From: Ignavibacteriaceae bacterium | GTDB lineage: Bacteria > Bacteroidota > Ignavibacteria > Ignavibacteriales > Ignavibacteriaceae | Direction of reading: 5' to 3' | DNA: 64,000 nt | NCBI GenBank assembly: GCA_041738675.1 | Contig: JBGSPH010000059.1 | Coordinates: 30,086-94,085, forward strand | In this document: positions 45,031 to 51,034 of the stretch, piece after piece | How positions within the stretch are numbered: position 1 is the first letter of the stretch | How the letters are laid out: each line of letters starts with the position of its first letter | Translations under genes and position numbers: made by a program | Notes under the pieces: generated by a model | Told to the model about the DNA's origin: nothing | Databases searched by the model: none | What the model saw: the letters and a program-made list of their open reading frames with translations, nothing else

Positions 45031-47556
45031 TTAGAAACCTTTACCAAACTGAAAGTGGAATAACCATTCAGGCTCTCTGCCCTCAGTCATTAAACGATCA
45101 AACCCGTATCCAAGATCAAATCCTATCAATCCAATAGGATTGATTAATAACCTTGCGCCAAATCCTACTGATCTTCGCAGATCAAAAATATCTGTTTTTT
45201 GAAAATTTTCAAAGACGTTACCTGCCTCCGCAAACATTAAAAGGTATAGAGGAATTGGCTCTAAAGTAACAGCCACTCTAAATTCTGCACCAAATTTAGC
45301 CATAACTCTACCACCGACAACAAAACCAGTAGTTGGATCTCTCGGACCAACAGTTCTATCGTCATATCCCCTCAGTGCGGTTGTAGCTATTACTAAACCA
45401 TTACCGCCCATATAGAAAAACTCAAATGGTTGAATATTTGTACCTCTTACTATTTCATCTAAATATCCAACATTAGCCATTGTATAAAGCGCAATCCTAT
45501 TCGAGTTAAATAATCTTCTGTACCATTCTGTTAGAAAGTTTATCTTTAAATAATCAACATCACCTGGTAAAAATCTACCACCGGAAAGTTCAACATCTAC
45601 TTGTAAAGAGGTACCGTTAGAAGGAAAAATAGGATTGTCTATGTTTTTTCTTGATATAAGCGCACCTACAGAAAACTGATTGAATACTCCCTCTTTATAA
45701 TAATTCTGTCCTTCAATAACATTATTGTATTGATATCTAAATCTACCTTGAACATAAAAGAAATCATCGGGCCATTTTAATCTGCGCCCAACTCTTATTG
45801 TAGCACCTGATTGACGGAGATCATAAACATATTGCTGTCGCGTATCAAATACCTCTACTCCAACCGAGGTAGGAGTATCAAACATCCACGGTTCTGTAAA
45901 TCCTAAAGTAAATGTTCTGTATAAACTTCCAACACCAAACTGCCAGTTAAAACTTAAAACCTGTCCGGCACCAAGTCTGAATGGTTCAGCAATAGAAAAG
46001 TTTGTTAAAGTAACACCAACAGCACCGCTAAATCCAAAACTACCGCTGTATCCAACCGAAGCATTAAGATAATCGCTGGATTTTTCTGAAACTTTAAAAC
46101 CAATATCTACGGTGCTGTCGCTGGAAAGTTTTGTGGTTATCCCCTCAGGACCATATAATTGTTCAACATTAAAGTACTGCAGATTTGCAAGGTTCTGTAC
46201 ACTACGAAATAATAAACCTCTGTTAAAAAAATCACCTGGCACAGCAAAGAGCTCTCTTCGTATTACTTTTTCTTTGGTTTTATCATTACCAGTAATATCT
46301 ACTCTGCCAACTCTAAACTGATTTCTCTCTTCCACTCTAATTGTAACATCAATTGAATCTTCTCCAATCTTTGTTTCTTTTGTTTGAAGATTAAAGGTGA
46401 GGTATCCGTTATCCAGGTATAAAGCAGATACATCATCCTGTCTTTCGTTGCCGCGCAAATTTTGTTCAAACTTTTCAAGATCATAAACATCACCAGGGGC
46501 AAAATCTAATCTTTCGTTTAATGCATATGATGGATAAACAGTATTACCTTCCCACTTTATATTTCTTATTTTGTACTGAGGTCCCTCAAAAACATCCATA
46601 ACAATTTTGATATCTTTTTTATCATCGGAATAGACTAAAGAATCCGAAAGGATTTCAGCATCACGGTAACCATTTTTTTTGTAAAAATTTACCAGAAGTT
46701 CTTTATCTTTTTCATAATTCTTGGGATCAAATTTTGCACCGCTCCAAAATTTCCACCATACTTTTTCTGATGTTTCATCCATCTCGCTTTTTAAATCATC
46801 ATCATCAAAGGCTTCATTATTATTAAAAGCTATTTCTCTTACGGTAACTTCATTACCTTCTTCAATTAAAAATTTTAGAAGCAGTCTTTCTTTTATTTTA
46901 TTAATAAGGTTTGATGATTTGGCTTCAGATCCACTATACTCAACCTCATATTCATCAGAAAGATCAGTAGTGTTTTGCCATCTGACAAGGACATCTTCAT
47001 CAAGCGTATCTGCAGTAAAGTACTTATAATACTTAGCTGTAATTATGGTGTTATAATACCCTTCTTCTTCGTAAAGTCCGTTTATTCTCTGAATAATTTT
47101 TGAAACATCCTGTGGTTTTAAAATAGAGCCTCGCAGAAAAGTAATTTTCTTTTCTATATCATCAGAATCTACTTCATCATTACCTTCAATAACAACCTTT
47201 TCAAGCCTTGGATATTCCTGAACTTTTATGAGAAGAAAAACACCATCGCTTAATTCTTTATCGATAAGAATCTGGACATCAGAAAAAATATTTAATGCCC
47301 AAAGATTTTTAATTGCATTAATTGTTTTATCACCAGGAACTTGTATTTCATCTCCAACTTTCAGCCCCGTTGAAACAATAACTGTATTAGCGTCGGAAGA
47401 TTTATTACCATCAACAGTAATTCCAAGTATTTTATATGTTGTTCTCTGCTGAGAAAAGACTGCAGAAGAAATAATCAGAATAAAAAACACCAAAAAATAT
47501 TTAGGCAATCTCATTGGGGAGGAAATGAACATTCTCCGGACCTTCTTCCTTTTCAT
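45031..47556 (-). CDS. bamA: Outer membrane protein assembly factor BamA
   Basis: It has POTRA repeats and a C-terminal beta-barrel ending FHFQFGKGF. The likely true start is the ATG at 47514 (MRLPKYFLVFFILIISSAVFSQ). Confidence 0.9.
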   Translation of the reverse strand: MKRKKVRRMFISSPMRLPKYFLVFFILIISSAVFSQQRTTYKILGITVDGNKSSDANTVIVSTGLKVGDEIQVPGDKTINAIKNLWALNIFSDVQILIDKELSDGVFLLIKVQEYPRLEKVVIEGNDEVDSDDIEKKITFLRGSILKPQDVSKIIQRINGLYEEEGYYNTIITAKYYKYFTADTLDEDVLVRWQNTTDLSDEYEVEYSGSEAKSSNLINKIKERLLLKFLIEEGNEVTVREIAFNNNEAFDDDDLKSEMDETSEKVWWKFWSGAKFDPKNYEKDKELLVNFYKKNGYRDAEILSDSLVYSDDKKDIKIVMDVFEGPQYKIRNIKWEGNTVYPSYALNERLDFAPGDVYDLEKFEQNLRGNERQDDVSALYLDNGYLTFNLQTKETKIGEDSIDVTIRVEERNQFRVGRVDITGNDKTKEKVIRRELFAVPGDFFNRGLLFRSVQNLANLQYFNVEQLYGPEGITTKLSSDSTVDIGFKVSEKSSDYLNASVGYSGSFGFSGAVGVTLTNFSIAEPFRLGAGQVLSFNWQFGVGSLYRTFTLGFTEPWMFDTPTSVGVEVFDTRQQYVYDLRQSGATIRVGRRLKWPDDFFYVQGRFRYQYNNVIEGQNYYKEGVFNQFSVGALISRKNIDNPIFPSNGTSLQVDVELSGGRFLPGDVDYLKINFLTEWYRRLFNSNRIALYTMANVGYLDEIVRGTNIQPFEFFYMGGNGLVIATTALRGYDDRTVGPRDPTTGFVVGGRVMAKFGAEFRVAVTLEPIPLYLLMFAEAGNVFENFQKTDIFDLRRSVGFGARLLINPIGLIGFDLGYGFDRLMTEGREPEWLFHFQFGKGF

Positions 47557-48443: not shown

Positions 48444-48475
48444 TACTCAGACTGAAAATAAACTCAGTCTGAGTA
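48444..48475 (-). terminator. Hairpin terminating the lexA three-gene unit
   Basis: TACTCAGACTG-N10-CAGTCTGAGTA forms an 11-bp stem, 9 nt beyond the stop at 48484. No strong U-tract follows. Confidence 0.5.
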
Positions 48476-48483
48476 ATTAGATT

Positions 48484-48915
48484 TTAAGAGAATAGGATCT
48501 TTTCTGATCTGTTTTCCTTGCGGATTAAGAGTTCTGGTTTTTCTGTTATCTGGAATAGTTTAATATTTTTCTTTGTTTCCGGATCAAGTTCATCCAATAG
48601 TACCTTGGCATTTTTTAGATTTAAGAGAGATACACCAACAAATAATTGTATTTTTTTATTTGATCCTCTTTTTTGTCTTTGTGCAAGATATGATAATTTA
48701 TTTTTTATAAACGATGGATCTTTAAAATCCTGATCGTCCAAAGTTATTCCGATTGCAAAATTATCTTTTTGTTTTGCAATCACGTCGATTTCAAATCCGC
48801 CAATGTTAGATGGCTCCGGAAGATACGTACCAAATTTTCTAAATAAAGTCAGATATCCTTTTTTCCAGAATTCTTCAATCAACAAATCAACATCTCTTCT
48901 TCTATCTGTGTTCAT
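48484..48915 (-). CDS. Hypothetical protein with degenerate PD-(D/E)xK (YraN/Hjc-like) core
   Basis: GGFEIDVIAKQKDNFAIGITLD resembles GEIDLIA...VEVK of YraN-type endonuclease folds. The ExK position reads TLD instead. It is 143 aa and lies 12 nt after the WYL-like ORF. Confidence 0.35.
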   Translation of the reverse strand: MNTDRRRDVDLLIEEFWKKGYLTLFRKFGTYLPEPSNIGGFEIDVIAKQKDNFAIGITLDDQDFKDPSFIKNKLSYLAQRQKRGSNKKIQLFVGVSLLNLKNAKVLLDELDPETKKNIKLFQITEKPELLIRKENRSEKILFS

Positions 48916-48927
48916 AATATCACCTCT

Positions 48928-49176
48928 TTACGATGCAAGTGGAATGATTGGGATTATCGGAGAAAATCTTTTTTTCTCAAGTACTTTAATGTTTGCAATC
49001 TTATTGTAATTGAATTTTTTAATTTCACTTGATTGATAGACTTTCCCATAAATTACTTTTGAGCCGCTTCTTTCCATCGTTATATAATATGGCTCAATTA
49101 ATACCTCGTTAAGTCCATATAAAAATCTCAAACGATTTCTATTTTTAATTGCTGTTTCAAATATTTCTGTTTTCAT
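48928..49176 (-). CDS. Stand-alone WYL-like domain protein (no HTH)
   Basis: LRFLYGLNEVLIEPYYITMERSGSKVIYGKVYQSSEIKKFNYNKIANIKVLEKKRF follows the WYL pattern (h-Y...R-h-h-P-Y-h...G-h-Y-h...R-F-..-RI). It is 82 aa and lies 13 nt after lexA. Confidence 0.5.
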   Translation of the reverse strand: MKTEIFETAIKNRNRLRFLYGLNEVLIEPYYITMERSGSKVIYGKVYQSSEIKKFNYNKIANIKVLEKKRFSPIIPIIPLAS

Positions 49177-49189
49177 ATCATGTTCCTTT

Positions 49190-49849
49190 TTAATTTAACC
49201 ATCTTATTACGCCAGTAACTTTACCCACAATTGAAAAATCATTTTTATTTTTAATAACAATTGGTTCATATGATTTGTTTTGTGGAATCAATCTTATTTG
49301 CTGGTTCTTATTTTCATAAATTTTTACTGTAACCTCATCATCAATACGAGCTACAATTATATCTCCGTTAACCGTATTTGCTTTAGGTGAAATAATTACT
49401 AAATCACCTTCAAATATTCCTGCATCGATCATACTATCACCATTTACTCGAAGAGCAAAGGAGTCAGCATCTTTTTTTATGAAACCAGGATCTATAACAA
49501 TCGATCCTTCAATATTTTCTTCAGCAGTTATTGGTGAACCGGCAGCAACTCTGCCTATTATTGGAATTTTGCCAAGGATATTTGCTTCATTAATATTTAT
49601 TGAGGCAGTAGATTCAAACTCATCACGGGTAATTGTGATTCCACGGCTTGCATTACTTAGAATATTTAAATAACCTTTTTTGGTCAGCGCTTCTAAATGT
49701 CTTTTAACACCAAAAGTTGATGAAATATCAAAACGCTTTCCAATTTCTCTAAGTGTCGGTGGGTAACCATTCTCCAGTAAAAACTGCTGAATAAAGTTTA
49801 ATATTTCTTCCTGTCGATCTGTTAACTGTTTTTTTTCCATTTTGATCAC
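49190..49849 (-). CDS. lexA: LexA repressor (S24 autopeptidase)
   Basis: The N-terminal wHTH reads GYPPTLREIGKRF. The cleavage region is VAAGSPI, the catalytic Ser is in GDSM and the Lys is in VTVKIY. The track start is GTG, and the likely ATG is at 49840 (MEKKQLTDRQ). Confidence 0.9.
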   Translation of the reverse strand: MIKMEKKQLTDRQEEILNFIQQFLLENGYPPTLREIGKRFDISSTFGVKRHLEALTKKGYLNILSNASRGITITRDEFESTASININEANILGKIPIIGRVAAGSPITAEENIEGSIVIDPGFIKKDADSFALRVNGDSMIDAGIFEGDLVIISPKANTVNGDIIVARIDDEVTVKIYENKNQQIRLIPQNKSYEPIVIKNKNDFSIVGKVTGVIRWLN

Positions 49850-49870
49850 TTTTAGTATTTATAAAGTAGT

Positions 49871-49917
49871 GCTCATTTGTTCACCTCAAATATAGTGTAC
49901 AAGTGTTCACTTGTCAA
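49871..49917 (-). promoter_or_regulatory. lexA promoter with overlapping candidate LexA operators
   Basis: The minus strand reads TTGACA (49917-49912), a 17-nt spacer, then TATATT (49894-49889). The palindrome ACAAGTG-nn-CACTTGT (49899-49914) covers the -35 and spacer and contains GAACACTTGTAC. A second GAACAAATGAGC (49882-49871) sits at the predicted start site. Confidence 0.55.
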
Positions 49918-49951: not shown

Positions 49952-51034
49952 TTAAAATTGGTAGGCAGGGTCTAGTAAATAGAAAAGCTTTTGTCCGATA
50001 TGATTAATATTCATTATTCCACTAAATATTCCTTCGCCGGGACCAAATGCAAAAATTCCCACTGGTGAAGGTGTATGACTTCCTGAAGAATATGCTAACT
50101 CCAAATCGCTTCCATCAAGATTGCCTTTGGTGATTGACATTCCTCCGGTTTCATGATCAGAGGTTATAACAATTAATGTATTGCCATCTTTCTTTGCAAA
50201 ATTTAACGCCTCAGTTACAGCAGCTGAAAAATCTTCCATCTCATCGAGCAATTCTTTTGATTTACGATCATGCCCAGCCCAATCAATTTGGGAACCTTCA
50301 ATCATTAGTACGAACCCGTCTTTATCACTCTTTAAATGATTTAGAGCTGTTTTTGTTAAATCTCCTAAAGAATAATTTCTTTTTGATGATTCCGGTAATC
50401 CATCCATTTCCAAAAGTGCGTAAAAATTTGTAATTGATTCCGGCAATGAATTTAATTCTGAATAATTTTTAGGCAAACTATAATCTTTTAACTTCAAATC
50501 ATCCATCAAATTTCTGTTATCTTCTCTTTCACCCGATAAACTTTTTGGTAAAAAATATTTTAATCCGCCGCCAATAATTACATCAAAATTTTGTTCTACC
50601 ATTTGAGAGGCTATTAGATTTTGGTCATATCTGCTTATTGAGTGTCCAAGGAATGCCCCCGGTGTAGCGTGAGCAATTGATGCTGTAACAACAACACCAG
50701 TAGATAAACCTAATTTTTCTGCGTGCTCAAAAATTGTGTATAGTGGATTTCCTAAAGTATCCACAGCAACATATTTATTATTTGTAAGATGACCTGTTGC
50801 AATTGCGGTGGCACCTGCAGCAGAATCAGTAATTAGCTTATCTGCAGAACAAGTGATTGATAATCCGATAGTTTTAAATTCTTTAAAGGGCGAGTTTGGA
50901 TTTTTTAATAAAGAGGCACCAACATAGTTGATGCCCATTCCATCTCCGATTAGGATAATAATATTTTTAGGTTTTACATTTTGTGCGATTAATAAATTAA
51001 AAGCAACTAAAAAAAGTACAACAACACGTAACAT
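49952..51034 (-). CDS. Alkaline phosphatase (PhoA family)
   Basis: It has a signal peptide, GDGMG, TDSAAGATA (catalytic Ser) and DHETGG. Confidence 0.85.
   Translation of the reverse strand: MLRVVVLFLVAFNLLIAQNVKPKNIIILIGDGMGINYVGASLLKNPNSPFKEFKTIGLSITCSADKLITDSAAGATAIATGHLTNNKYVAVDTLGNPLYTIFEHAEKLGLSTGVVVTASIAHATPGAFLGHSISRYDQNLIASQMVEQNFDVIIGGGLKYFLPKSLSGEREDNRNLMDDLKLKDYSLPKNYSELNSLPESITNFYALLEMDGLPESSKRNYSLGDLTKTALNHLKSDKDGFVLMIEGSQIDWAGHDRKSKELLDEMEDFSAAVTEALNFAKKDGNTLIVITSDHETGGMSITKGNLDGSDLELAYSSGSHTPSPVGIFAFGPGEGIFSGIMNINHIGQKLFYLLDPAYQF

Follow-up and report, generated by a model that had tools for sequence, protein, structure and literature searches.

A stand-alone WYL domain and an orphan partner in a putative lexA operon of Ignavibacteriota suggest an accessory module of the SOS response

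Introduction

WYL proteins have been described as sensors of single-stranded DNA (ssDNA) in damage responses that are independent of LexA, such as those of DriD and PafBC, and as regulators of defence, and the characterized cases are all fusions to a helix-turn-helix (HTH) domain. Binding of ssDNA by the WYL domains of DNA damage regulators is documented (PMC9186387, PMC11804915 and PMC13004042), as well as by the PDB entries 7tzv and 9c5g. Here, we describe a WYL-like protein in another setting. A 64-kb stretch of contig JBGSPH010000059.1 from an Ignavibacteriaceae bacterium, analyzed as a whole and hereafter called the window, carries a three-gene unit on the minus strand of positions 48444-49917. 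The unit comprises lexA, an 82-amino-acid (aa) open reading frame (ORF) termed p82, and a 143-aa ORF termed p143. The explanation that best fits its sequence and that of its relatives is an SOS operon of three cistrons, autoregulated by LexA and specific to Ignavibacteriota. The unit suggests a possible accessory module to the SOS response that has not been described before.

The WYL regulators DriD of Caulobacter and PafBC of mycobacteria and the WYL activators of Acinetobacter and other Moraxellaceae have the WYL/Sm-like barrel and the DNA damage theme in common with p82. These regulators of HTH-WYL-WCX architecture possess both an HTH and a WCX domain, whereas p82 has neither, and sequence identity is only 11-19%. 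They also define LexA-independent pathways, while p82 is encoded within the lexA operon itself. WYL domains can act as accessory modulators of another protein, as in WYL1 of type VI-D CRISPR systems and in the Pif1 helicase (PMC9186387). However, WYL1 has an additional ribbon-helix-helix domain and the Pif1 WYL domain is fused in cis, and their partners and contexts are unlike those of p82.

The YolD/YqjX proteins (PF08863) are small, SOS/LexA-regulated, stand-alone SH3/Sm-like proteins of the WYL-like superfamily. They adjoin Y-family polymerase genes in tight operons and have been proposed as Gram-positive counterparts of UmuD (PMC6511836). Because these proteins exist, an SOS-wired small WYL-like protein is not unprecedented, and they form the closest conceptual precedent for p82 in being small, stand-alone, LexA-regulated and linked to a partner. 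The partner differs, being p143 for p82 and a YqjW/UvrX-type Y-family polymerase for YolD/YqjX, and a search confined to the loci listed found no polymerase gene within ~5 kb on either side. Membership of p82 in the YolD family was considered and rejected: PF08863 matches 0 of 37 p82 relatives at E ≤ 1, and hhalign against the SPbeta YolD returns a probability of 0.07%. In structure, p82 is nearer to WYL proper than to YaeO or Hfq.

Operons in which an autoregulated lexA is cotranscribed with downstream SOS genes (sulA/imuA-like cargo) resemble the arrangement proposed here; the cargo of the Ignavibacteriota operon is instead p82 and p143, found in no other clade sampled. A preliminary description of this locus did not recognize it as a described system. 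This holds insofar as we found the pair in no family model and no paper, and literature searches on LexA with WYL or with Ignavibacteria brought up neither a lexA-WYL operon nor an account of the two protein families. That description did not, however, cite the YolD/YqjX precedent (PMC6511836).

Results and Discussion

The lexA-p82-p143 trio in Ignavibacteriota

The three genes of the unit are as follows.

49190-49840, minus strand: lexA, 216 aa when counted from the conserved ATG (listed as an ORF from GTG 49849)
48928-49176, minus strand: p82, 82-aa ORF, 13 nt past the lexA stop
48484-48915, minus strand: p143, 143-aa ORF, 12 nt past the p82 stop

To assess how widely the unit occurs, we scanned for p143 with one genome per species, which yielded 50 loci, all in Ignavibacteriales-type metagenome-assembled genomes (MAGs). 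In every one of the 50 loci, lexA and p82 lie directly upstream of p143, and p82 is intact in 49. The intergenic gaps within the trio are 10-20 nt in nearly all loci, the exceptions including a 13-nt overlap in four lineages. The proteins themselves have diverged considerably, with lowest identities across these loci of 58% for LexA, 47% for p82 and 42% for p143. The preliminary description had claimed a tight three-gene unit with the same order and spacing of ORFs, and had named the recurrence of this synteny in related genomes as a check; the layout is confirmed and the claim survived, since the unit, with its LexA-operator promoter, accompanies this LexA clade wherever it is found. Because both small ORFs are intact, with equal lengths and gaps of 10-20 nt, in 49 of the 50 species-level genomes at identities as low as 42-48%, and have Shine-Dalgarno (SD)-like motifs at their starts, they are, on these sequence criteria, not due to chance. 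In the remaining locus (L026, 5754-5966), from a single MAG, the p82 homolog is split into a 17-aa ORF and the remainder; this break is probably an assembly frameshift and not a gene loss.

The linkage of the trio holds over four unrelated flanking contexts. In Melioribacteraceae, the trio is present with unchanged flanks. Three other lineages have different flanks: one has NadE and DsbD upstream and a PAS kinase and a sigma54 regulator downstream, another has RsmB and a polysaccharide synthase upstream and a CHASE2 cyclase downstream, and the third has a convergent RsmB-F gene and a glycosyltransferase family 4 (GT4) gene downstream.

We also approached the question from the opposite direction by retrieving 80 metagenomic lexA loci by LexA alone. 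Where LexA is at least 53% identical and downstream sequence is available, p82 is present in all 10 loci, as is p143 in those whose contig extends far enough. Where LexA is at most 50% identical, p82 and p143 occur in none of the sampled metagenomic loci. The lexA loci from outside Ignavibacteria have heterogeneous downstream genes, with a SulA-family gene in 4 of 36 and a WYL gene in 0 of 36. Conversely, the p82-p143 pair is always accompanied by lexA in the loci seen. Judged by this synteny, the trio is lexA-specific and inherited as a unit throughout Ignavibacteriota, and it was not found in the other clades sampled. Searches for phage and plasmid homologs of p82 and p143 returned none, and the only PADLOC defence-system match was a weak one to a WYL model. 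An origin from a mobile element or defence system was therefore rejected, given the absence of phage or plasmid homologs and the core-genome position.

LexA and its predicted operators

The LexA protein of the window matches TIGR00498 with an E-value of 1.6e-67 (227 bits against a cutoff of 111) and consists of a LexA_DNA_bind winged HTH (PF01726, 1.3e-22) and a Peptidase_S24 domain (PF00717, 2.8e-36). Its VAAG cleavage site, the GDSM serine (Ser136) and the TVK lysine (Lys173) are invariant in 10 divergent orthologs with identities down to 47%, and the same comparison revealed no lineage-specific insert or docking motif. By these sequence features, LexA is canonical, with the winged HTH, cleavage site and catalytic residues that had been read from the window initially.

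A promoter of the sigma70 type precedes lexA, and two LexA-type palindromes overlap it. The elements upstream of lexA, at the starts of the two small genes and beyond p143 are listed here.

49912-49917, minus strand: -35 hexamer TTGACA of the lexA promoter, found identically placed in 48 of 48 related loci
49895-49910, minus strand: predicted LexA box 1, GTGAACACTTGTACAC, of the GAAC-N4-GTWC type, filling the spacer between -35 and -10; position-specific scoring matrix (PSSM) score 22.9
49889-49894, minus strand: -10 hexamer TATATT, assigned by promoter match
49869-49884, minus strand: predicted LexA box 2, GTGAACAAATGAGCAC, just 3' of the -10 hexamer and over the expected transcription start; PSSM score 24.0
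49184-49187, minus strand: SD-like AGGA, 7 nt before the p82 ATG
48921-48926, minus strand: SD-like GAGGTG, 5 nt before the p143 ATG
48444-48475, minus strand: hairpin with a 13-bp stem, 9 nt past the p143 stop; -19.8 kcal/mol

The arrangement TTGACA-17 nt-TATATT (49917-49889) is the best promoter match of the region, agreeing at 11 of 12 positions. A search of the 64 kb for 16-bp LexA-type palindromes returned three pattern matches, which represent these two sites, against 0.27 expected, and none elsewhere. Similarly, in a PSSM scan of the window, the third-best site scores 10.3, compared with 24.0 and 22.9 for the two boxes. The order -35, box 1, -10, box 2 is kept in all 48 related loci with usable upstream sequence. 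Both boxes have a GAAC-N4-GT(T/A)C core, as is typical of the Gram-positive-type LexA box. From these patterns, we infer that both boxes are LexA operators and that lexA is autoregulated. The overlap of a sigma70-like promoter with palindromes, proposed in the preliminary description, was thus borne out, as was the hairpin 3' of the unit, although we count 13 pairs in place of the 11-bp stem given there. Comparable hairpins occur in close relatives of the window locus but are not universal, and the hairpin at 48444-48475 is the probable end of the transcription unit.

Motifs of the AGGAG/GAGG type precede the starts of p82 and p143 in nearly every lineage, whereas lexA, unlike the two small genes, has no SD-like motif before it. 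On this pattern, the three cistrons are tightly packed yet translationally independent, each small gene having its own SD-like site. The length of the lexA leader varies, being ~25 nt longer in the window and its close relatives (49841-49868) than in many lineages. In many lineages the lexA ATG lies within ~5 nt of LexA box 2, and the 5' untranslated region is therefore very short.

p82 resembles a minimal WYL domain

The AlphaFold2 (AF2) model of p82 has a predicted local distance difference test (pLDDT) score of 87.6 and a predicted template modeling (pTM) score of 0.74. It consists of one helix (residues 2-12) and five strands (14-20, 23-34, 40-46, 52-56 and 60-70) that form an Sm/SH3-like barrel. 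In a Foldseek search of the PDB, the top 17 matches are all WYL domains of DriD, PafBC, BrxR and CapW, with query TM-scores (TMq) of 0.69-0.79 and root mean square deviations of 1.4-2.2 Å over 69-79 columns; Sm, Hfq (TMq ~0.63) and YaeO rank below them. Sequence profiles point in the same direction more faintly. The p82 of the window has no Pfam or NCBIfam match, and the Pfam WYL family PF13280 matches 13 of 37 p82 relatives weakly and below significance (best E, 2.1e-4). The PADLOC WYL model matches p82 weakly as well (E = 0.0021), and one JGI homolog carries the WYL-containing COG label "YafY." The E. coli K-12 gene named yafY was tried as a WYL reference and discarded, as it encodes an unrelated lipoprotein. 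A PBECR2 match of p82 (E = 0.028) was dismissed as noise, and profile searches with the window proteins against PDB sequences gave nothing significant.

Neither an HTH family nor a WCX domain was found in p82, whose whole 82 aa are made up of the barrel and a 12-residue tail. As modeled, p82 is a minimal WYL domain that lacks both HTH and WCX, which agrees with its initial reading as an HTH-less WYL protein; lacking both, it is no transcription factor on its own. Residues F6, A9, I10, F18, Y20, P29, G38, K40, Y43, G44, N62 and P73 are invariant across all lineages, and R13, Y30, F55 and F71 are also conserved. The protein is basic (pI, 9.9; family median, 9.95) and has no transmembrane segment. 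Its high pI and the conserved R13, Y20, Y30, K40, Y43, F55 and F71 may hint, indirectly, at a ligand such as ssDNA, RNA or a nucleotide.

The tail F71-S-P-I-I-P-I (residues 70-82, 48928-48966) is conserved in every lineage although it is predicted to be disordered, with AF2 confidence dropping first to 63 and further on to 43. Its probable role is docking to a partner. The DriD pocket for ssDNA combines WYL strands with the linker (Tyr240) and the WCX domain (PMC9186387). By analogy with DriD, the p82 tail would sit where the linker sits, and because the DriD pocket also uses the linker and WCX domain, p82 may need a partner to complete its binding site.

p143 is an orphan alpha/beta protein

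No Pfam, NCBIfam, PHROG or PADLOC family and no PDB sequence match was found for p143, and member-wise scans of its family against Pfam, PHROGs and PADLOC revealed no family common to more than one member. Among 1.84 billion cluster representatives, a profile search recovered only 50 clusters at E ≤ 1e-3. Nearly all are stand-alone proteins with lengths of 120-154 aa, and the named members belong to Ignavibacteriaceae, Melioribacteraceae and other Ignavibacteriales/Ignavibacteriota. Like p82, p143 is basic (pI, 9.5; family median, 9.49) and has no transmembrane segment.

The AF2 model of p143, built on a shallow alignment, has a pLDDT of 66 and an alpha-beta-beta-beta-alpha-beta-alpha-beta topology that fits the PD-(D/E)xK core. 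Its Foldseek matches are weak (E, 2e-3 to 1e-2; TM-score, 0.43-0.54; best 7.9e-3 in the PDB and 2.4e-3 in BFVD) and consist mostly of PD-(D/E)xK folds, namely, XisH, Cdn1/Can2 nuclease domains, Bax1, a CdiA-CT toxin, BstEII, MmcB-like repair proteins and RecB-family nucleases. The best of them, XisH (PDB 2inb and 2okf) and MmcB-like proteins, share with p143 their size and an a-b-b-b-a-b topology; they differ in that the TM-score is so low, no profile relationship exists and p143 has no ExK. MmcB is SOS regulated in Caulobacter. Equivalence of p143 to a WCX domain was rejected because Foldseek gives it no structural support. A match to C2_PACS_N (E = 0.079) was set aside as noise. A match of residues 3-64 (48724-48907) to the C-terminal RCK region of the CASTOR channel was repeated but not significant (E, 0.09-0.5), found no support in Pfam or Foldseek and was dropped.

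Conservation over 60 p143 sequences with less than 70% mutual identity bears directly on the putative active site. Residues conserved at 90% or more are L12, G20, R26, Y31, L32, P35, D44, G56, L77, G94 and I118. D44 opens strand beta2 and is 95% conserved, with Ala in its place in two family members, and residue class is conserved at D/E10 (93%), D/E63 (97%), K/R73 (97%) and K/R48 (100%). Strand beta3 reads A-I-G-I-T, with G56 invariant and T58 variable, and the canonical ExK is therefore absent. This family-wide pattern contradicts the preliminary placement of TLD at the expected ExK position. The accompanying view of p143 as a degenerate PD-(D/E)xK-like protein fares better in part: the topology and the weak Foldseek matches favor the fold, while the low pLDDT and the missing profile link speak against it, and "degenerate" is not settled because D44, D/E63 and K/R73 are conserved. 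A classical PD-(D/E)xK nuclease is unlikely, and p143 is more probably a noncatalytic or noncanonical nuclease-fold binder of DNA or protein than such an enzyme.

The C termini of p143 (48484-48540 in the window) are lineage specific, with 135 of 259 family members ending in [IV]LFS-COOH. Deep-branching p143 proteins have an internal x[SDT]LF (QASLF, LDLF, PSLF or PTLF) and a terminal F/Y-x-N, and Melioribacteraceae-type proteins have no tail. Since the tails differ by lineage, they cannot carry a core function. The x[SD]LF motif resembles the beta-clamp-binding pentapeptide QL[SD]LF, but a beta-clamp-binding reading was rejected, as the motifs are lineage specific and absent in Melioribacteraceae-type proteins.

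A proposed mechanism and its alternatives

We tentatively propose that p82 and p143 form an SOS-induced complex that binds ssDNA, a reading that we consider the most likely of those weighed here but well short of secure. In undamaged cells, LexA would occupy both boxes and keep all three genes low. DNA damage would lead to RecA-stimulated LexA self-cleavage and thereby derepress the operon. The Sm-like barrel of p82 would bind single-stranded nucleic acid, most likely ssDNA, like the WYL domains of DriD, PafBC and CapW, and p82 would join p143 through the conserved FSPIIPI tail. In this complex, p143 would take the place held in DriD by the linker and the WCX domain. The heteromer would then act at damage-generated ssDNA by protection, processing or recruitment, and shut-off would follow as new LexA from the same transcript accumulates.

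Several points weigh against this proposal. The single damage-inducible transcript that it presupposes is inferred only from spacing and operators, and a weak promoter-like match lies within the 3' end of p82 (48980-48953), the number of such matches equaling chance expectation. The core neighborhood from ilvE to uppS-bamA is generally stable and accounts for part of the synteny. Binding of ssDNA by p82 alone is uncertain because p82 lacks the linker and WCX domain, and the ligands of some WYL proteins are RNA or other molecules. The fold of p143 is only weakly called (pLDDT 66; Foldseek E ≥ 2e-3), and the top 50 PDB matches of its model include no WYL regulator and no WCX domain. Finally, the one fusion that would favor a pairing is doubtful: a single 237-aa protein (P0245, JGI) joins p82 and p143 in that N-to-C order, the p82 stop position reading Trp (..LVS-W-KK-MDNE..). 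It may be a real TGA-to-TGG fusion or an artifact of sequencing, assembly or gene calling, and as a singleton on a 1,032-bp contig it has low weight.

The pair could instead feed back on the SOS signal, with p82 and p143 binding ssDNA, RecA filaments or LexA and tuning LexA cleavage or re-repression, either as functional analogs of RecX/DinI or as a WYL sensor that serves LexA in trans. Such a role would account for the pair being welded to lexA, unlike ordinary SOS genes, which are scattered. The linkage is absolute and lexA-specific even where all flanks differ, an mRNA in common with LexA would favor fixed stoichiometry, and the gene order winged HTH (LexA)-WYL-partner mirrors the HTH-WYL-WCX domain order of DriD/PafBC-type regulators. 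Yet LexA is entirely canonical, with no docking motif or insert visible, and the known WYL damage regulators work independently of LexA, so that we regard feedback as rather unlikely. A "split" WYL regulator seems improbable; in it, p82 and p143 would make up a WYL module that senses ssDNA and acts in trans, directly on LexA or the RecA-LexA reaction, with LexA contributing the DNA-binding domain. Between these two in credibility is an enzymatic role, in which p143 would cut nucleic acid through a rearranged active site (D10, D44, an acidic cluster at 61-63 and K/R73), gated or targeted to ssDNA by p82 and acting as an SOS-induced DNA-processing enzyme in a role comparable to that of SOS-regulated MmcB. 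The PD-(D/E)xK topology of the model, Foldseek matches that are nearly all nuclease folds and the conservation of D44, D/E63, K/R73 and D/E10 would fit such an enzyme. Set against them are the invariant Gly and variable residue of beta3 where (D/E)xK is expected, the Ala at position 44 in two members, the low model confidence and the absence of any sequence profile tying p143 to a nuclease family, bar one member that matches AHJR-like at E = 0.06.

The remaining explanations would detach the pair from the SOS response. If p82 and p143 were housekeeping or otherwise unrelated neighbors, for example RNA-binding Sm-like factors, expressed mainly from their own signals and without SOS function, their position could owe something to the stable ilvE-lexA-...-uppS-bamA core region of most genomes. 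Sm-like folds bind RNA too, Hfq is among the structural matches of p82 (TMq ~0.63), and a promoter-like match lies inside p82. However, in none of more than 60 loci are the 10-20 nt gaps wide enough for independent promoters or terminators, the trio keeps together in unrelated contexts, and the pair has never been seen without lexA, which makes unrelated neighbors quite improbable. WYL proteins often regulate defence systems, and p82 has its weak PADLOC WYL match, so a defence-island or toxin-antitoxin-like module under a WYL protein, as with BrxR and CapW, was also considered. The core-genome location, vertical inheritance and universality of the trio within the phylum, the lack of phage or plasmid copies and of any PADLOC effector match, and the absence from p82 of the HTH needed for a repressor role render such a module barely credible.

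Whichever role applies, what is new here is a minimal WYL domain apparently hard-wired into the lexA operon across a phylum, alongside an orphan partner. Should the pair prove to be an SOS effector, as our preferred ssDNA-binding complex would be, the textbook regulon gains a new component. If it acts on LexA or RecA, two systems that have been described as independent, RecA/LexA and WYL/ssDNA sensing, would be physically merged in Ignavibacteriota. In addition, p82 and p143 define two protein families that have no Pfam or NCBIfam model. Direct biochemistry is feasible, since the proteins are small and soluble, and cultured species (Ignavibacterium and a Melioribacteraceae isolate) encode them.

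Neighboring genes in the window

The trio of the window is flanked by core housekeeping genes: an ilvE-type aminotransferase and alkaline-phosphatase genes upstream, and uppS and bamA downstream. An Rfam scan of the whole window identified no RNA family. Some Ignavibacteriales genomes have the alkaline-phosphatase-like gene of the ilvE-lexA interval (49952-51034) and others lack it; upstream of its promoter, lexA therefore adjoins a variable insertion point. On the other side of the trio, the uppS and bamA ORFs, as listed, share 56 nt (47501-47556) on the same strand, and the true start of bamA is probably an ATG further downstream.

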